Shown: in pieces, positions 21,422-29,589 of the stretch
Layout: each line of letters starts with the position of its first letter
Numbering within the stretch: position 1 is the first letter of the stretch
Origin: an uncultured archaeon
GTDB taxonomy: Archaea > Aenigmatarchaeota > Aenigmatarchaeia > GW2011-AR5
DNA length: 64,000 nt
NCBI GenBank assembly: GCA_964373255.1
Contig: CAYJTG010000005.1
Span: 10,638 to 74,637 of the forward strand
Direction of reading: 5' to 3'
Notes under the pieces: model-generated
The model's database searches: none
The model's input: only the letters and a program-made list of their open reading frames with translations
What the model was told of the DNA's origin: nothing
Made by a program: the position numbers and the translations under genes

Positions 21422-21712
21422 TTAATTTATCCCAAGCATTACCTTGATCTCTTGTGAGGGTTTCCATTGCGGTAAAAAAACAATTTGTATTGATACGTCT
21501 TTTACGCCTTCTATCCGTTTCAGTTTTTCCTTTATGGTCTCGATGAGCACAGGGCCATAAGGACAAGCAGGCGTGGTAAATGTCATTTTTATATTTACCT
21601 TGTCCGTATCGATGTCAATGCCGTAAATAAGCTCCAGCGTCCACACGTCTATATTAATCTCTGGGTCCATGCACTCTTTCAGGACATCTATTACCTGTTG
21701 CATCGTTGTCAT
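21422..21712 (-). CDS. DUF59/MIP18-family Fe-S assembly protein
   Basis: 96 aa; VIDVLKECMDPEINIDVWTLELIYGIDI...VNIKMTFTTPACPYGPVLIETIKEKL matches the DUF59 (PaaD-like) core. Confidence 0.6.
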   Translation of the reverse strand: MTTMQQVIDVLKECMDPEINIDVWTLELIYGIDIDTDKVNIKMTFTTPACPYGPVLIETIKEKLKRIEGVKDVSIQIVFLPQWKPSQEIKVMLGIN

Positions 21713-21752
21713 GATATAACACTAGATAGCAATTCTTATATGATTATTTGAA

Positions 21753-22061
21753 TGGGCTTGGCAGGATTTGAACCTGCGTCACAAGCTCCCAATGAGCATC
21801 AAATTATAGCTCTACAAGGAAAGAAACAAGATACAAGAAAGAACGAAGTTCTTTCTGTACAGCAAGAGCAAAGCTCTTGCTTGTATTACTTCCTTGTGAG
21901 CTATATGTGAAACCGGAAAAACATGTCCGGATTCTTTTCTGGTTTCACTATAAGCTCGGATCATAGTCGTATGAGATGCGAAGCATCTCTATGCTCTAAC
22001 CAAATTGTCCCACCTTCCGCTTTGATGCAGCTTTCTGGAAAGGTGCCTAGACTACAAGCCC
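21753..22061 (-). tRNA. tRNA-like gene with about 235 nt of structured intervening sequence (candidate multi-intron tRNA; anticodon not resolved, loop ATTGGGA suggests Pro/UGG)
   Basis: Minus strand: 5' GGGCTTG-TA-GTCTAGG... and 3' ...GTGAC-GCAGG-TTCAAAT-CCTGC-CAAGCCC-A. 7-bp acceptor helix, canonical T arm, discriminator A. Interior has several perfect hairpins. Confidence 0.5.
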
Positions 22062-22123
22062 TATAGGGATAATGGGTAAAAAGAATTATTAAAAGGCTCT
22101 CTCACAACTAGAACAGTGGTTTA

Positions 22124-22249
22124 ATGGTGAAAAAGAAAACAAAGAAATCCAACAAGAAGGCTGCTATGTGCGCCTGCGGCTGCAAAATGTCTATTAAGAA
22201 TTGCAAATGCTGCGGCATGGGTGGAAAGAAAACCTGTAAGTGCTGCTGA
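22124..22249 (+). CDS. Small Lys/Cys-rich peptide, 41 aa (9 Cys; metallothionein-like or RiPP-precursor-like), not in ORF track
   Basis: Hand translation: MVKKKTKKSNKKAAMCACGCKMSIKNCKCCGMGGKKTCKCC. Paralogue of the peptide at 24375-24527. Confidence 0.45.
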   Translation: MVKKKTKKSNKKAAMCACGCKMSIKNCKCCGMGGKKTCKCC

Positions 22250-22262
22250 GCCTATCATTCAA

Positions 22263-22514
22263 TTAGAGCCGCATCGATTTATTTATCAGGTTATATTTTT
22301 GACTCTTTGATAGTTTCTTGAACGCCACTTCTGCCCTAAGCGCTTCGCCCTTCGTTTCGTGCGCCCAGTATGCAATAATTTCGACCGGAAGCCTGCTTCT
22401 AGTATATTTTGAGGCTTTTCCTTCATTGTGTAGCTTCAGTCTTCTCTTCAAGTTATTGGTATAACCTGTGTAAAATGATCCGTCCTTGCACTTCAAGACG
22501 TATACGTAGAACAT
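22263..22514 (-). CDS. GIY-YIG nuclease family protein (UPF0213-like)
   Basis: MFYVYVLKCKDGSFYTGYTNNLKRRLKLHNEG matches the GIY..YIG..N...R...H motif. Track ORF (to 22553) extends into MITE copy A4, so the internal Met at 22514 is taken as start. Confidence 0.65.
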   Translation of the reverse strand: MFYVYVLKCKDGSFYTGYTNNLKRRLKLHNEGKASKYTRSRLPVEIIAYWAHETKGEALRAEVAFKKLSKSQKYNLINKSMRL

Positions 22515-22524
22515 AAAATTACCT

Positions 22525-22655
22525 GCTCTGTAGAAATGCTCGATAAAGAGCATCGACGTAGACCTATACGTCTCTTGACGTATAGGTCAGCTAGAGATAT
22601 CATCGATAGATGATATCTCTCACGTCGATGCTCTTGCATAGGTTTTCTACAGAGC
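22525..22655. mobile_element. Family-A MITE-like element, diverged copy A4
   Basis: Same architecture as A1. Both internal hairpins carry compensatory substitutions that keep perfect pairing. Confidence 0.65.
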
Positions 22656-22707
22656 AAAATTACCTAATTATATACTATATATTCGGAAAGGATTAAGTCT
22701 GATTTCT

Positions 22708-22815
22708 CAGGAAGGGATTAAGTCTAGACACACAGAAAGCAAAGCTTTCTGGTGCACCAAAGAACCTTTGGTTCTTTGCGTGTTATAAGGGAAACCCAGG
22801 TTTCCCTTAATGTAG
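22708..22815 (-). repeat. Family-H hairpin-string element, copy H3 (reverse orientation)
   Basis: Reverse complement of the 51654-51761 element: cattaagggaaacccaggtttccctta / aaagaaccaaaggttcttt / cagaaagctttgctttctg / tctagacttaatcccttcctg. Confidence 0.6.
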
Positions 22816-22817
22816 AG

Positions 22818-23029
22818 TGGGCTCGCCCGGAATTTCACCGAAGCAGCATAATACTGCGATAGCCACCTAAGGATGGTAATGCCTTAGGAAGGATATCCTT
22901 CCTCGGCTTTGAACCGGGGTCTCATGCTTTTCAGTTTCTTTACTTGATTTTTCTGACTTTCTTGATTAAACTTCTTTTCAAAAGAAGTTTACCCTAAGCA
23001 CGGATCCTAACCAAACTAGACTACGAGCC
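22818..23029 (-). tRNA. Second tRNA-like gene with ~140 nt structured interior; 3' T-arm non-canonical (uncertain)
   Basis: Minus strand 5' GGGCTCG-TA-GTCTAGTTTGGTTAGGATCC... and 3' ...CGAGCCC-A (7-bp acceptor complement 212 nt apart). 5' 15 nt nearly identical to the 21753-22061 gene. Internal CCCGG-TTCAAAG-CCGAG T-arm-like segment. Interior has perfect hairpins (aaacttctttt-gaaa-agaagttt; gaaggatatccttc). Confidence 0.3.
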
Positions 23030-23069
23030 CATAAATTCTACATAGTTTATTAGATTTTTAAGGGGGTGA

Positions 23070-23212
23070 GACACTGTCAACTTAAGGGGTACATAATGGA
23101 ATCGAAGATTCCACTTGTACAGGTGAAGCTTTGCTTCACCATGTATTAGCTATCGCTAATACCCCAGAAAAGGCTGTTGCCTATAGGCAACAGCCGTTAA
23201 GTTGACAGTGCC
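23070..23212. mobile_element. Family-Z TIR element, copy Z1 (internal module replaced)
   Basis: TIRs cactgtcaacttaag / cttaagttgacagtg; internal ggctgttgcc-tatag-gcaacagcc hairpin. Central segment carries the ggaatcgaagattcc and caggtgaagctttgcttcacc modules seen at 15880-16000. Confidence 0.6.
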
Positions 23213-23217
23213 ATGGA

Positions 23218-24123
23218 GTGAACGTTATTAAAGTTCCGGTACAATTTCTAGAGATGCCTATTCCAAAAGGTTTTGATGACCTCGTTAAATTAGCCGTGAA
23301 GGACAGGCCGGAGAAGCCAAAAACCATCGAGGAAGTATGGGATAAATTTCTTTTTGTTGTTTTCATGGGCGGAAAGCGGTCAGAGCCTGAAATACAGTTT
23401 ATTACAACCATGCTCAAGGCAAAGAAACTTGTCCAGTTTGACTATGTCCTGAAGACAGACGGCGACGACTGGCGCGAAGCCGTTGAAGCAGTGCTCAACG
23501 ACCGATTGAAGAGAATGCAGGACGAGGACCTTAAGGTAGCGCTAAAAGAATTCCAAAAAGAGATATTTAGGATAAGCGCTTCAATCAAGGGGGGTGCACG
23601 ATTTTTAAAAAACATGACACCTGACGGACTCGCCGAGGCGCTCAGCAACAAAGAAAAGACTTGGGAATTCATCGAAAACCTGGCCAACAACCAGGACGTT
23701 TCCAACATAAAGTATACAAAGATAATCATTTGGCTGCATTCCATAGGCTACGGCTATGATTTTTGCCCGCCGAGCTGGCAAACAAAAAAATTCATCAATA
23801 CCGAGGTCGGGCCGTATTACAACTTCTACGAGGACGATAAGTATTTCATGAAAAAAGCCGAGGAGTTTTCTGAAGACGTCAAGAAAAAGGTCAAAGGCGC
23901 AACAGCCCGAGACGTGTCTGCGGCAATTTATTATTATATGGTATTAAAAAATTCTCTCCCCACGCGTTCTCCAATAAAGAAAAGATGTACGGCGGCGGTC
24001 ATAGTCCGGTTCCTTAAGAAAAAGAAGCTTTCACTTAAAGACATTTCTGCCGCTCTTGTCGATTTTGACGGCAGAGAGAGGATTATGAAAACATTTTTTG
24101 AATTTTTGAATAAGACAAAATAA
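23218..24123 (+). CDS. Hypothetical protein, 301 aa
   Basis: Long ORF with reasonable codon usage; no motif recognised. Confidence 0.3.
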   Translation: MNVIKVPVQFLEMPIPKGFDDLVKLAVKDRPEKPKTIEEVWDKFLFVVFMGGKRSEPEIQFITTMLKAKKLVQFDYVLKTDGDDWREAVEAVLNDRLKRMQDEDLKVALKEFQKEIFRISASIKGGARFLKNMTPDGLAEALSNKEKTWEFIENLANNQDVSNIKYTKIIIWLHSIGYGYDFCPPSWQTKKFINTEVGPYYNFYEDDKYFMKKAEEFSEDVKKKVKGATARDVSAAIYYYMVLKNSLPTRSPIKKRCTAAVIVRFLKKKKLSLKDISAALVDFDGRERIMKTFFEFLNKTK

Positions 24124-24217
24124 GTATAATCAGTATTGGGCATTCGTCTTGCACAGAAGCAATTGCGTACAAATAGCTACGAGCCCAGCAATTTCTATAA
24201 TGATTTATTATGCATTT

Positions 24218-24372
24218 AAATCTAAGAATTCCACTGTTTTGAAATCTTGCATTCCACCTATCTATTGATGGGTGGTGGAATACGGGATGTAAGAACCACT
24301 GTAATACGTGGCATTGACCAATTTCAAGATGCCACTGGTCTTTGACCAGTGGTTCTTCACATTGGTGGTATT
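24218..24372. repeat. Left copy of the aaatctaagaattccactgtttt...ggatgtaaga.ccactgt direct repeat, with CCACTG boxes
   Basis: Shares about 60 bp in two blocks with 25371-25480, same orientation. Contains aaccactgt and the palindrome ccactggtc-tttg-accagtgg. Confidence 0.55.
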
Positions 24373-24374
24373 GA

Positions 24375-24527
24375 ATGGCAAAAAAGAAGATGGCGAAGAA
24401 AAAATCATCCAGAAAAATGAAAAAATCTAGCAAATCCGCTGCAATGTGTTCGTGCAATTGCGGCATGAGCACGAAAGACTGTGGTTGTTGTGGTAAGGGC
24501 GGCATGCGTACCTGCAGTTGTTGCTGA
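24375..24527 (+). CDS. Small Lys/Cys-rich peptide, 50 aa (paralogue of 22124-22249), not in ORF track
   Basis: Hand translation: MAKKKMAKKKSSRKMKKSSKSAAMCSCNCGMSTKDCGCCGKGGMRTCSCC. Core aligns residue-for-residue with the 41-aa peptide (AAMC.C.C.MS.K.C.CCG.GG..TC.CC). Confidence 0.45.
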   Translation: MAKKKMAKKKSSRKMKKSSKSAAMCSCNCGMSTKDCGCCGKGGMRTCSCC

Positions 24528-24636
24528 TTATTAAGGATGTGTAAATGGGGCGAATTTTTATTAGGCAGAAAAACGCATTTTTGGCCCGAACATATTTATT
24601 TATGTTTATAGTATCACAGTAGAAAGCAGTGGTCTC

Positions 24637-24870
24637 ATGATAGTAAAAATATACACGACAAATCACTGCCCGTACTGCAAGATGGCAAAAGAATTCTTCA
24701 AAATGCACAACGTGAAGTACGACGAAATAAACGTCGAGGAAGACGCAAAGGCGGCAGAGGAAATGATAGAAAAGTCCGGCCAGATGGGCGTTCCTGTAAT
24801 AGAAATAGACGGGAAACTGATCGTAGGTTTTGACAAGCGCGCGATAGAGAGTGCGCTAAAAATAAAGTGA
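24637..24870 (+). CDS. Glutaredoxin-like protein (NrdH/Grx family, CPYC active site)
   Basis: MIVKIYTTNHCPYCKMAKEFF...GQMGVPVIEIDGKLIVGFD is a thioredoxin-fold glutaredoxin. 77 aa. Lies 0.9 kb upstream of nrdR. Confidence 0.7.
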   Translation: MIVKIYTTNHCPYCKMAKEFFKMHNVKYDEINVEEDAKAAEEMIEKSGQMGVPVIEIDGKLIVGFDKRAIESALKIK

Positions 24871-24904
24871 AATCCTGATTTCTCATTTTTTTGTATATTA
24901 GTTA

Positions 24905-25345
24905 TTAATCGCCTACAGGATCTTTTTTATACAACCATGTGTTTCTTTTTTCTGGATGCTTGAAAAAGTGCTTATGCATATAATCCTTCATATAGTCATC
25001 TGTTTTGTATACAAGTTTTGCGTATTTGTTTATACCATCAACTTGTATTTTGCTTGTGCGCGTAAAACGCCCTGCCCTGAATTTCTTAATAGCATGCCGC
25101 ACATCTATATAATTAATACCGCTAGTGTTGTATTGTCTTATAACAGCATTGAGAATAGAAAATGGAGCATCATAAATATTGTTTTCCTGATATAATTCTC
25201 TAATTTCTTCTGCCAAATCTTTAACAAGCTGCGGTTGTTTAGTAGAATCGATAACATGATTCAGTGCGCCCTCGATTATTGTAATGTCTGTTTTGGAATC
25301 TTTTGAAGGGAATTGTGCTTCTATAAGAAATTCTTTGAATCTCAT
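24905..25345 (-). CDS. Hypothetical protein, 146 aa
   Basis: No recognised motifs. Lies between the two direct repeats. Confidence 0.3.
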   Translation of the reverse strand: MRFKEFLIEAQFPSKDSKTDITIIEGALNHVIDSTKQPQLVKDLAEEIRELYQENNIYDAPFSILNAVIRQYNTSGINYIDVRHAIKKFRAGRFTRTSKIQVDGINKYAKLVYKTDDYMKDYMHKHFFKHPEKRNTWLYKKDPVGD

Positions 25346-25370
25346 AGAAATAGCATAAATGAAATGTTTT

Positions 25371-25501
25371 TAAATCTAAGAATTCCACTGTTTTCAAACA
25401 ATGATAGGGTGGAATTCTGGATGTAAGAGCCACTGTCTTTATACAGTGCTTTACCACTGTTTTGTAATTTTTGCCACTGTTATCTCGCAAAAATCACACT
25501 G
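25371..25501. promoter_or_regulatory. Array of five CCACTGT / CACTGT boxes immediately upstream of nrdR (right copy of the direct repeat)
   Basis: CCACTGT at 25384, 25429, 25453, 25473 and cactgt at 25496, spaced ~45, 24, 20, 22 bp. The second forms the palindrome cactgt-ctttat-acagtg. nrdR ATG at 25639. Confidence 0.45.
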
Positions 25502-25638
25502 TCACGACAAAGTCATTTCACTTTTTCAGTTTAGATATTGCAAAGAAGAAAAGCATATTTAAGACAAAATCTCCTATATATTGTAGATTTTCAGGTTTAA
25601 CATACAATGGGTTGTGGGTGTGGATCGAGGTTTCTTCT

Positions 25639-26079
25639 ATGAATTGCGTATTCTGCGGACATGAGACTAAGGTCATGGACAAAAGAACTAATGATGAAAC
25701 TACTCGCCGCAGAAGAGAGTGCCTAAAATGCGAAAAAAGATTTACAACCTATGAGCGCGCGGATATAAGCCTGAGCGTAGTAAAAAAAGACACCCGCCGC
25801 GAGCCTTTTTCCCGCGAAAAAATCCTTGCAGGAATGTTGAGGGCGTGTGAAAAGCGACCTGTGAGCAAACAGCAGATCGAAGAGACCGTTGACAAAATAG
25901 AAAACGAGCTCCGAAAAATAAGTGACGAAGTGCCAAGCAAGAAGATAGGCGAGCTCGTGATGAAGCACCTCAGAAGATTGGACAAGGTTGCCTACATTCG
26001 TTTTGCTTCTGTCTACAGAAGCTTTGACGACATAAATTTGTTCGAGCAAGAGGTGAAGTTGCTGAAGAAGGTTGCGTAA
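25639..26079 (+). CDS. nrdR: NrdR transcriptional repressor (Zn ribbon + ATP cone)
   Basis: MNCVFCGHETKVMDKRTNDETTRRRRECLKCEKRFTTYER (C4 zinc ribbon at the extreme N-terminus) then an ATP-cone domain (VVKKDTRREPFSREKILAGM...). 147 aa; in-frame ATG inside the longer track ORF. Confidence 0.75.
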   Translation: MNCVFCGHETKVMDKRTNDETTRRRRECLKCEKRFTTYERADISLSVVKKDTRREPFSREKILAGMLRACEKRPVSKQQIEETVDKIENELRKISDEVPSKKIGELVMKHLRRLDKVAYIRFASVYRSFDDINLFEQEVKLLKKVA

Positions 26080-26121
26080 ATAATTAAATAAATTAAATAT
26101 TTGATTTTGGGAGGTAGTTGC

Positions 26122-29100
26122 ATGGCAAAAATAACAAAAGTTCGAAAAAGAGACGGAAGAATTGTAAATTTTGGCAAAGACAAGATAACAAACGCTATAT
26201 TCAAGGCCGTCCAGGCAGTAGGCGGGTCTGACAAAACTATAGCAGAAAGCCTTGCAAATCAGGTCATGGAAATTCTGGAAAAGAATATGCCACCGGGCGC
26301 TATTCCAAACATAGAGGATATACAGGATATTGTCGAGAGGGTTCTGATAGAATCCGGCCATGCAAAGACAGCAAAGGCCTACATACTTTACAGGAATGAG
26401 CACGCCAGAGTAAGGGAAGAGCAGAAAAGAATATTAGGCGGCAAAACAACAAAGCTCCCCTTCAGCATGAATGCCCTGCAGGTTCTTGCAAAGCGCTACC
26501 TTGTAAGAAACAGGGACGGTAATGTTATTGAATCGCCTGATGATATGTTCGAGAGGGTTGCTGATTCTTTGGCAAGCGTGGAGTACGAGTATGGAAAAAC
26601 AAACGAGGAAGTCGAAAAATTTTCCCAGCAGTTCAATGAAATCATGGCAAGTTTTGAGTTCATACCAGCTGGGCGCACAATGACAAACGCGGGCTCGCCG
26701 ACCCCTATAGTGCCTAATTGCATAGTCCTTCATATTGGCGACAACATGGATAACATATTTCAGACACTTAAAGAAGCCTCGCTTCTTCAGCAGGCAGGCT
26801 CTGGGTTGGGATTTCCGTTCCACCTGCTAAGGCCGGCCGGCACCGTTGCAAAGCGCTCCCGTGGGGTAGCCTCCGGTCCGGTCTCTTTCCTGCGCGTTTA
26901 CAATAATGCATTCGGCGTGATAAAACAGCAAAACAGGCACGGCGCGAACATGGGCGTTATGCGCGTCGACCATCCGGATATACTTGAATTCATACACGCA
27001 AAGGACGTCGAGGGCGAGATAAGGAACTTCAACATCTCCGTTGCAATTACAGATGAATTCATGCAGAAGGCACGCGACAACGATTCAACGCCTTGGATAT
27101 GCGAGTGGAACGGCGAAAAGATGAAGCCAAGGCGCGTTTACAGGGATTCAAACGGCATTGTTCTCGACATCAAGGAGGAGACAATGACGGCAAAAGAAAT
27201 CTTCATGGAAATTGTGTCGTCGGCATGGCAGACCGGCGAACCTGGAATAATCTTCATCGACAAAATAAATGATACAAATCCGTTGCCCGGTCTTGGTCGA
27301 ATAGAGGCGTGTAATCCTTGTGTGACCGGCGATACATTAGTAAGCACGGAACACGGAATGATGAAAATATCTGATTTGGCAGAGAAACATGGAAAAGGTG
27401 GCGTATCTGTAATTTGTGACAATAGGATGCCTATAACAATATATGAATCTGATGGAACCAAAGTCCTGATATACAAAGGCACAAAAGGCACACAAATCAA
27501 TAACGTGAGTGCTGCATGGAAATCTGGCTTCAAAGATGTATTGAAAATTGAAACAGAATCGGGGTACGAGCTTGAAGCCACAGCAGATCATAAGATAATG
27601 ACAACAAAAGGATGGATAGATGTCGAAAACCTTACAAAAGAACACGAAATTCTTATTCAATCAGGAGAAGGAAGATTCTCTGTAAACAACCAAATTCCAT
27701 TTGAAGTGCAGAATGAATTTATTGGAGAAAATGGCAGAACTTATAAATATAATTTTCCTCGTCAATGGAACAGGGAATTGGGGCAACTTCTTGGCTGGAT
27801 CGTAGGTGATGGCTGGATAAGAGACAAGGAAAAGGAGTGCGATAAAGAAATAATGACACATATAAAGTCGATAGGAAACATGATTTATGGCTCTGAAAAA
27901 CGAGAAATTGAAAGAATAAGAAATACACACCATCTCAATTATGGTTCACGACGCTTTGTAGAATACCTTATGAAGCTTGGGCTCAAGACAACAGGCGCAG
28001 AAAATAAAGAAGTACCAAAGAGCATTTTCACAGCACCAAAAGACGCTGTATCAGGCTTCCTTCAAGGTTTGTTTTCATCAGATGGCACAGTAATGCTAGA
28101 CGAAAAACATGGCAACTATTATATAAGATTGACAACGAAATCGATAAAACTTGCAAAACAGGTTCAGACACTTCTTCTGAACTTCGGAATTAAGTCAAGA
28201 ATATACGACAGGAGCAGGCCGCCAAAAAAGAACCTATTTACGTATGAAACAAAATCAGGAGAAAAAAGAACTTATGCATCTGACGGAATTCTGTTTGAAG
28301 TGCATGTACATGGCGATACAATAATAAAATTTAATGAACAAATAGGATTTCTATGCAGTAAAAATAAAGAGAAAATAGAAAAGATACTGAAAAAGAATCT
28401 AAGAGACGATAAATTTACAGACAAAGTAAAATATGTCGAGTACATTGGCAAGAAAGATGTCTACGATCTCACAGAACCAGCGACGCACTCTTTCATAGCA
28501 AATGGTATTGTGGTATCAAATTGTGGTGAGCAATTTCTCCACGACGGCGATGTCTGCAATCTTGGTTCGATAAATCTGGAAAAATTTGTAAAAGATGGCA
28601 AAATAGATTTTGATCGATTAAGGCATGTCACACGTTTAGCTGTGCGTATGCTTGACAACGTTGTCGATATCACAGCAGCGCCTGCCGACCGTGTCAATCA
28701 CATGTTCCGCGCAAACCGCAGGGTCGGTTTGGGCATAATGGGCTTTGCGGATATGCTCTATCAACTGAAGATAGGTTATAATGCAGAAGAGGGCGCAAAG
28801 ACAGCAGAAAAGGTCATGAACTGCATTCAAGAATCTGCCCACCAAATGTCGCAAGAGCTTGCTGAGGAGAAAGGCGTGTTTCCAAACTGGGAGAAGAGCG
28901 TATTTGCAAAGAAAGGTATAAAGATGCGAAACGCCGCGCTCACAAACATCGCCCCGACAGGAACTATATCCATGGTCTTCGACGTTTCCGGGGGCGTAGA
29001 ACCTTATTTTGCCTTGGCTTACCACTACCAGGGAATTCTGGGGGGCGCAACCCAGCTCTACTACGTCAACAAGCACCTGAGAAAGACACTGGAAGAGTAT

Positions 29101-29589
29101 GGTTTATACAACGATGTAATAATGAAGCGCATATTTGAGGAAGGAACGCTGCAGCGTATAGAAGAAATCCCTGATGATTTGAAGCGTGTGTTTGTCACGG
29201 CCATGGATATTTCATCCGACGACCACATACGGGTGCAGGCGGCTTTCCAGAAATACGTTGACAACAGCATATCAAAGACGTGCAACTTCCCTGAGGACGC
29301 TACAAAAGAGGACGTCTTTCAGGGATATCTGCTCGCCTGGCAGCTCGGCTGCAAGAGCTGCACCGTGTACAGAAACAACTCACGCAGGCTGCAAGTGCTG
29401 AATCTTAACAAGCAGAAACAGGAGGAAGTTCAGGAAGAGGAGTACGAGCCGCAGCAGCAGAAGATAGCGGTCGCAGCCACAAACGGTTCTACACATTACA
29501 CGACGTGTCCAGAGTGTGACACCGTGCTGGAGCAAAAAGAAGGGTGTTCTTCTTGCCCTCAGTGCGGCTGGGGATTGTGCAGCGTGTAA
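26122..29589 (+). CDS. nrdJ: Class II (B12-dependent) ribonucleotide reductase NrdJ, with N-terminal ATP cone, one intein, and C-terminal Zn ribbon
   Basis: ATP cone [21 protein letters not shown]. Catalytic motif NP|CGEQ split by the intein. C-terminal CPECD...CPQCG. GGAGGT 7 nt upstream of ATG 26122. Extein ~760 aa. Confidence 0.85.
27319..28521 (+). mobile_element. Intein (401 aa) with LAGLIDADG homing-endonuclease domain, inserted before the catalytic Cys of the RNR NPCGE motif
   Basis: N-extein ...EACNP | [11 protein letters not shown] (Cys1, block A) ... [11 protein letters not shown] and [12 protein letters not shown] (two LAGLIDADG-type motifs) ... IANGIVVSN | CGEQF (terminal Asn, +1 Cys). 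Confidence 0.8.

Follow-up and report, generated by a model that had tools for sequence, protein, structure and literature searches.

Metallothioneins have been described in eukaryotes and in some bacteria. In the vertebrate beta-domain (PF00131), nine Cys residues form M(II)3Cys9 or Cu(I)6Cys9 clusters. The fungal Cu(I)-thioneins (Saccharomyces CUP1 and the Neurospora crassa metallothionein) are very small, single-cluster peptides with CxC and CxCxC runs and Gly, Ser or Lys between the Cys residues; they are not known to carry a polybasic tail or to end in CxCC pairs, and their genes are copper-induced. Among prokaryotes, BmtA/SmtA (PF02069) and mycobacterial MymT are small, Cys-rich proteins that serve as cytoplasmic metal buffers. 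In SmtA, about 56 residues long, only 9 Cys are present, alongside His ligands and aromatic residues in a zinc-finger-like fold, and smtA is paired with the gene for the SmtB repressor. Bacterial metallothioneins are often overlooked by annotation. We know of no described archaeal metallothionein family, and our search of the literature returned neither an archaeal metallothionein nor a peptide of the kind considered here. A conserved archaeal candidate would, if true, fill this gap.

Here we analyse two genes for Cys-rich peptides, pepA and pepB, in a 64,000-nucleotide stretch of archaeal DNA (the window), together with their relatives elsewhere. As in the vertebrate beta-domain, nine Cys are packed into about 30 residues, with Lys-flanked CxC motifs, no aromatic residues or His and no hydrophobic core, and folding would be expected only around metal. 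Unlike that domain, to which they show no detectable sequence similarity, the peptides space their Cys as CxCxC-x6-CxCC-x7-CxCC; they also consist of a single domain, with no alpha-domain, and carry a poly-Lys N-terminal tail and two invariant Met. With the fungal Cu(I)-thioneins they share very small size, a presumed single cluster, CxC/CxCxC runs and Gly, Ser and Lys between the Cys. At its start, the CxCxC of the core resembles the CQCQC of CUP1, and this run together with the invariant Met recalls Cu(I)-thioneins; BLASTP against human MT2A and yeast CUP1, however, gave E values of 1.7-1.9 (1.7 for CUP1), which are not significant.

Like BmtA/SmtA and MymT, the peptides are prokaryotic, small and Cys-rich, but no ArsR/SmtB-type gene adjoins the peptide genes and no Pfam model matches them. 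The archaeal CPxCG zinc-finger micro-proteins (Haloferax) and small zinc ribosomal proteins are likewise shorter than 60 residues, basic, Cys-containing and often unannotated. The CPxCG-type micro-proteins, however, bind one Zn through two CxxC pairs, whereas the present peptides have no CxxC and more than twice as many Cys. A further analogy is to mammalian protamine P1 and to the polybasic-plus-terminal-Cys motifs of small GTPases, which also combine extreme basicity with Cys, as in the C-terminal CxCC of the peptides; there is no homology to either, and chromatin condensation and lipidation find no support here. If the peptides are metallothioneins, they would bear on soft-metal and thiol-stress handling in the reduced-genome DPANN archaea.

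Two nine-Cys peptide genes and their relatives

The coordinates of both genes and of the features around them are collected in Table 1. The translations are MVKKKTKKSNKKAAMCACGCKMSIKNCKCCGMGGKKTCKCC for pepA and MAKKKMAKKKSSRKMKKSSKSAAMCSCNCGMSTKDCGCCGKGGMRTCSCC for pepB. Each peptide has nine Cys, and the 27-residue cores can be aligned without gaps to the consensus M-C-x-C-x-C-x-M-x2-K-x-C-x-C-C-G-x-G-G-x3-C-x-C-C-stop, with six residues between the third and fourth Cys. Both ORFs, their coordinates, translations and Cys counts, and the gap-free core alignment were re-derived exactly as an earlier, sequence-only reading of this DNA had given them. The window contains two matches to the core DNA pattern, against none in 100 dinucleotide-preserving shuffles, and a six-frame scan of the window held no third copy of the core.

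Table 1. Positions of the peptide genes and of neighbouring features (window coordinates unless a locus is named)
Feature	Position	Strand	Description
pepA	22124..22249	+	41 aa; poly-Lys tail (residues 1-14) and 27-aa nine-Cys core
pepB	24375..24527	+	50 aa; poly-Lys/Ser tail (residues 1-23) and 27-aa nine-Cys core
TGA stops	pepA 22247-22249; pepB 24525-24527; L014 1909-1911; L026 856-858		
Putative archaeal promoter of pepA	22078..22095	+	A-rich BRE-like stretch and TATA-like box TTATTAAAAG
SD-like GTGGT, pepA	22116..22120	+	3 nt before ATG; inside CAGTGG box
SD-like GGTGGT, pepB	24364..24369	+	5 nt before ATG
Candidate TATA-like box of pepB	24204..24221	+	TTTATTATGCATTTAAAT; in a direct repeat
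Structured 5' region of pepB	24270..24374	+	perfect palindrome and outer stem pairing across SD region
Spurious antisense ORF	24083..24505	-	140 aa; called on Logan contigs; entered in protein collection instead of pepB
tRNA-like genes	21752-22061, about 22820-23030, 24140-24191	-	very long or multiple introns at non-canonical positions
Nested perfect inverted repeats	22524-22656		arms of 13, 14, 12 and 12 nt; long stem with two inner hairpins
1.15-kb segment	23038-24193		flanked by direct repeats of tRNA 5' end and upstream spacer
Glutaredoxin	24637-24870	same as pepB	Pfam PF00462, E = 3.8e-22; 110 nt downstream of pepB

Relatives of the two genes were sought in one genome per prokaryotic species (GTDB set) with a DNA pattern for C-x-C-C-G-x-G-G-x3-C-x-C-C. 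This gave 49 matches, of which two proved to be clear homologues after translation; the other 47 were chance matches, mostly Cys/Gly-rich reading frames in bacterial DNA. One homologue lies in an Aenigmatarchaeota MAG from groundwater (locus L014, peptide MAKKKTKKTKKAGMCACDCGMSVKNCGCCGKGGKKSCKCC) and the other in an uncultured archaeon (locus L026, peptide MVAKKKASSRGKKSSKSSKKGMCKCGCGMLMKVCNCCGMGGKKVCTCC). The earlier reading had proposed a search for the core in related genomes as a check, and both of the homologues found here have a Cys spacing identical to that of pepA and pepB. The nearest relative of pepA is the L014 peptide (pN 0.14), and the four peptides fall into two subtypes, one with a short tail (pepA and L014) and one with a long tail (pepB and L026). 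The long tails have the motif KKK-SSR-KKSSKS in common, written in synonymously different codons. Each of the four genes keeps its poly-Lys tail in frame, and as the pepB and L026 tails also differ synonymously, the tail would be translated too.

An identical pepB was found on the independent Logan contigs L003 and L004; it is carried by contigs of the same organism (ERR4904390-92). The family comprises, so far, four sequences in three genomes, and pepA and pepB are paralogues in a small family as yet known only from Aenigmatarchaeota-like (DPANN) archaea. The window itself was placed among such archaea through the L014 homologue and through a gene order in common with L026. Two scans of viral contigs found no member. 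A metagenome scan whose nine-Cys pattern had five residues between the third and fourth Cys, one fewer than in the family, returned only (TGY)n microsatellites and has no bearing on how common the family is there. In a search of genome contigs for relatives, 139 stretches matched the pattern and none passed tblastn, a failure for which we suspect the combination of low-complexity masking and a short query.

All four peptides have masses of 4.1-5.3 kDa. Cys makes up 18-22% of the whole peptides and 33% of the core, compared with an average of 1.0% in the proteins of the window, and it occurs only in the CxCxC run and the two CxCC motifs, flanked by Lys. Phe, Trp, Tyr and His are absent from all four, none of the members has a CxxC pair, and inspection of the peptide sequences revealed no hydrophobic segment and no signal peptide. 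An AlphaFold2 model built on a two-sequence alignment was of low confidence (mean pLDDT 59, pTM 0.24). This is what would be expected of a peptide that folds only around metal, although the shallow alignment may itself be the cause.

In each of the four genes a TGA stop follows directly after the terminal CC. TGA accounts for 15 of the 52 stops (29%) among the long ORFs of the window, yet for all four in the peptide genes, and it has been kept although most synonymous sites of these genes are saturated. Selenocysteine, through UGA recoding past the terminal CC, was considered and rejected: the read-through sequence is not conserved, so read-through of the TGA seems unlikely.

Coding status and absence from protein catalogues

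Comparison of the four genes shows a pattern of substitution that follows the reading frame. Across the core, invariant positions number 15 of 27 and consist of the nine Cys together with three Gly, two Met and one Lys; third codon positions vary in 23 of the 27 codons, and synonymous differences are seen in 11 of the 13 degenerate codons for invariant residues. Nei-Gojobori estimates of pN lie between 0.14 and 0.29, against pS values from 0.67 to above 1 (saturated). Purifying selection acts in the sense frame. The start, the SD site and the position of the stop are kept in all four genes, and the indels in the tails are in frame. Judged on these comparisons, pepA and pepB are very probably real, selected protein-coding genes, and we infer that they are translated in vivo. 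This is also where the earlier reading had placed them: its claim that the genes are real is upheld by the two homologues and by the estimates just given.

The contrary position would be that there is no gene here, either because the antisense ORF is the real one or because the regions are non-coding spacer beside tRNA genes. Gene callers did prefer the 140-aa antisense ORF to pepB, the antisense frame that shares its third codon positions with the sense frame stays open at all four loci, and both profile searches of large protein collections came back empty. However, even the best antisense frame has only 8 of 26 columns invariant, and the antisense ORFs, at 36, 140, 56 and 104 aa, conserve neither their lengths nor their ends. 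A spacer or antisense origin also sits badly with the conserved sense start, SD site and stop, with the in-frame tail indels and with the synonymous differences between the pepB and L026 tails. We therefore regard it as highly improbable that these are not genes. Because the antisense frame is open at all of the loci, gene callers recorded the 140-aa ORF over pepB, and that record is an annotation error.

In a collection of 15 billion proteins none of the four peptides is present, and the 140-aa antisense ORF is (its sources being NCBI and Logan). Exact look-ups showed that pepA and pepB are not on record as called genes, nor are two versions of a neighbouring GIY-YIG protein. Word-indexed protein searches returned nothing for the 50-aa peptide and nothing for the four-member alignment, and an exhaustive hmmsearch of 1.84 billion representatives with a 30-position core profile gave no hit at E <= 0.001, which is a weak negative because so short a profile is underpowered at that database size. 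Antisense translations, used as queries to recover mis-called ORFs, also found no match. Neither Pfam (at E <= 1) nor NCBIfam (at E <= 10) gave a family match for the four peptides, and none came from PDB sequences, where no metallothionein appeared at E <= 10. The earlier description of such peptides as poorly catalogued thus holds for Pfam, NCBIfam, PDB sequences and two very large protein collections. With four genes missing from 15 billion proteins and a spurious antisense ORF included, the failure of annotation is systematic, and Cys-rich micro-proteins of this type may be under-counted generally.

A proposed metal-thiolate reading and the polybasic tail

The earlier reading had named a metallothionein-like metal buffer among its possibilities, and this is plausible. 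We tentatively favour, at a little under an even chance, the reading that pepA and pepB encode a single-cluster metal-thiolate (metallothionein-like) peptide with a polybasic tail, because the four members show every metallothionein feature that can be read from a sequence: their masses are below about 10 kDa, their Cys content lies within about 15-35%, and aromatic residues and His are absent. None of them matches a known metallothionein family (Pfam PF00131, PF02069, PF01439, PF11403 and others), so that the peptides, belonging to no known metallothionein sequence family, would be an independent invention.

We infer metal binding, its stoichiometry, the identity of the metal and the role of the tail from the peptide sequences. 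One polynuclear metal-thiolate cluster would be enclosed by the nine thiolates, possibly with help from the two invariant Met. If the nine-Cys beta-domain of mammals is a guide, such a cluster would take up about 3 Zn(II)/Cd(II) or 4-6 Cu(I). Such a peptide could act in the cytoplasm as a buffer or store of soft metals, or detoxify them, and might secondarily scavenge oxidants. The negative net charge of the cluster would be balanced by the Lys residues that flank the Cys, and the disordered polybasic tail (13-23 residues, mostly Lys/Ser) may tether the peptide to nucleic acids, ribosomes or anionic membranes.

The long poly-Lys tail can also be held against a metallothionein. We know of no metallothionein that has one, and its presence points instead to a partner such as a nucleic acid or a membrane. 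The peptides might accordingly be small basic nucleic-acid-binding or ribosome-associated proteins, in which the tail would bind RNA or DNA and the Cys module would either coordinate a structural zinc or link molecules to one another by disulfides or zinc, much as in protamines or in small ribosomal proteins that bind zinc. Their composition fits such a role, with a pI of 9.5-9.8, 12-14 Lys/Arg and at most one acidic residue in each of the four, and so does their setting: each of the four genes has a tRNA-like gene, or a fragment of one, at a distance of 60-190 nt and lies among housekeeping and translation neighbours (ProRS, the CCA-adding enzyme, FttA and the proteasome). A promoter-like motif with an SD site, found in three of the four genes, fits steady expression. 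The Cys arrangement does not fit, however, as two CxxC or CPxCG pairs, the hallmark of zinc ribbons and knuckles, are absent from every member, and nine Cys in 27 residues far exceed the need of one structural site. In addition, no ribosomal or DNA-binding family in Pfam or NCBIfam matches, and adjacency to a tRNA gene is no proof of interaction. We consider this function unlikely.

Returning to the metallothionein-like reading, a more far-reaching version of it is that the peptides would represent the first metallothionein family of Archaea, specific to one lineage (Aenigmatarchaeota/DPANN) and independently evolved, whose tail would place a metal store on nucleic acids, ribosomes or the membrane. 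We put this forward as a speculative proposal, well short of an even chance. Under this proposal, the family would have stayed invisible because gene callers skip its genes or call the open antisense frame.

Upstream signals and genomic setting

The promoter-like motif of pepA sits 29-46 nt 5' of the ATG. The motif AAAAA-AAT(T/C)TATTAAAAG(G/A)C is common to the pepA, L014 and L026 genes at an equal distance upstream, about 25-45 nt from the ATG, and is their putative promoter. For pepB the TATA-like candidate falls within a second copy of the 5' end of the tRNA-like gene at 23016-23060 and of its upstream spacer. SD-type sites are found ahead of all four genes: GTGAT at L014 and GGTGAT at L026, in addition to those of pepA and pepB (Table 1). 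Sites of the (G)GTGAT type, 4-7 nt before the ATG, occur in a minority of the genes of the window, including those for ProRS and glutaredoxin. For most of its long ORFs the ATG is preceded, at about 25 nt, by an AT-rich TATA-like box but by no SD site, and most window genes look leaderless.

CCACTG/CAGTGG boxes, to which the sequence-only reading had drawn attention, are indeed located upstream of both genes. The pepA copy (CAGTGG, 22114-22119) lies 5 nt ahead of the ATG and contains the SD site; the copies before pepB (24291-24296, 24332-24337 and 24347-24352) help to build a hairpin, a perfect 9-3-9 palindrome with the sequence CCACTGGTC-TTT-GACCAGTGG (24332-24352). Window-wide, the 7-mer CCACTGG is not enriched (5 found against 3.4 expected). 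The structured region ahead of pepB has a predicted folding energy of -39.3 kcal/mol (z = -3.55 against 200 shuffles, from a single sequence), and the predicted structure and its palindrome may be a regulatory leader or operator. No known RNA family was found by Rfam in 21700-24700, even at E <= 1.

The tRNA-like genes start with GGGCT(T/C)GTAGTCTAG, and the first two finish in a T-arm followed by ...GCCCA; they were missed by ARAGORN, even with its intron search, and by Rfam. The third is a 5' fragment only, possibly a duplication remnant or one half of a split tRNA. Their introns hold perfect hairpins of 9-12 bp (21836-21881, 22728-22781 and 22967-22991). About 60 nt separate pepA, and likewise the L026 gene, from the 5' end of a tRNA-like gene in divergent orientation. 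At L014 the peptide gene is about 125 nt downstream of a tRNA-like gene, and pepB is 183 nt from the duplicated 5' fragment.

The element of nested inverted repeats overlaps the annotated 5' end of a GIY-YIG ORF (22263-22553, minus strand), for which the internal MFYVYVLKC is the probable true start, as it is in L026. The 1.15-kb segment is bounded by a direct repeat, CTACGAGCCCA..AATT..TTTATTA, at 23021 and 24177. It contains a highly structured element of 140 nt (23072-23210) and a 301-aa ORF (23218-24123) with no Pfam or NCBIfam match. At L026, where the order is GIY-YIG, tRNA and peptide gene, the segment is missing, and it therefore has the look of an insertion or a duplication that separates the tRNA-like gene from pepB.

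The wider window is an ordinary archaeal chromosome segment, with SepF, prefoldin, FttA, proteasome, ProRS, CCA-adding enzyme, NrdR, an intein-containing ribonucleotide reductase and IMPDH. When ORFs of roughly 80 aa or more were scanned in the window from about 6.9 to 40 kb and at L014 and L026, no maturase, metal pump or transporter, metallochaperone or metal sensor was found near any of the four genes in these three genomic contexts. The only conserved neighbour is the tRNA-like gene with long introns, which is uninformative about metals.

The earlier reading had also suggested the precursor of a modified peptide, and the division into a Lys-rich leader and a Cys-rich core does give the peptides the two-part look of a RiPP precursor, the core recalling ranthipeptide or SCIFF-type substrates. 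This suggestion finds no maturase at any of the three loci: among the ORFs scanned within about 10 kb, none encodes a maturase of the radical-SAM, YcaO, lanthipeptide or any other kind, a protease or an exporter. NCBIfam, which includes SCIFF-type precursor models, gave no match at E <= 10, and it is the supposed leader that is variable and of low complexity, with conservation residing in the core. A RiPP origin is thus scarcely probable.

Thiol, redox or Fe-S proteins are encoded no more than 2.1 kb away in two of the three genomes: FeS_assembly_P and glutaredoxin in the window, Fe-S_biosyn and thioredoxin at L026. The peptides could on this basis be Fe-S cluster carriers or scaffolds that work with the nearby assembly proteins. 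The FeS_assembly_P (DUF59-type) gene is on the far side of the tRNA-like gene, its end about 410 nt upstream of pepA, and at L026 about 1.35 kb separate the Fe-S_biosyn (IscA/HesB-type) gene from the peptide gene. However, the association varies in distance and orientation and is missing from one genome of the three, the peptides have no ferredoxin-type CxxCxxCxxxC motif and no Pfam Fer4-type match, and to our knowledge no Fe-S scaffold is built of CxC/CC clusters. We regard this role as quite improbable.

The same neighbourhood could point to a thiol redox buffer or sacrificial antioxidant, recycled by glutaredoxin or thioredoxin and standing in for a low-molecular-weight thiol in a reduced-genome archaeon. 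A peptide with nine thiols in 4-5 kDa would suit this role; the glutaredoxin gene follows pepB on the same strand, as the earlier reading had pointed out, and a thioredoxin gene lies about 1.9 kb from the L026 gene. The clue is weakened by the position of the glutaredoxin, directly upstream of NrdR and ribonucleotide reductase. As the gene adjoins this pair and has its own AT-rich promoter-like stretch and SD site, with oligo-T runs between it and pepB, the protein is more simply the redoxin of the reductase, and NrdR and the reductase are its likelier partners. Moreover, no redoxin was present among the ORFs scanned in the 8 kb around the L014 gene, and the fixed Cys spacing and invariant G-x-G-G of the peptides suggest a defined cluster geometry and not simply generic thiols. 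A redox buffer therefore seems rather improbable. The stretch 24637-29589 encodes, in a row, the CPYC-type glutaredoxin, NrdR (TIGR00244, E = 1e-51) and a ribonucleotide reductase of 1162 aa that bears an intein; at L014, an archaeal helicase likewise holds an intein, with a LAGLIDADG domain.
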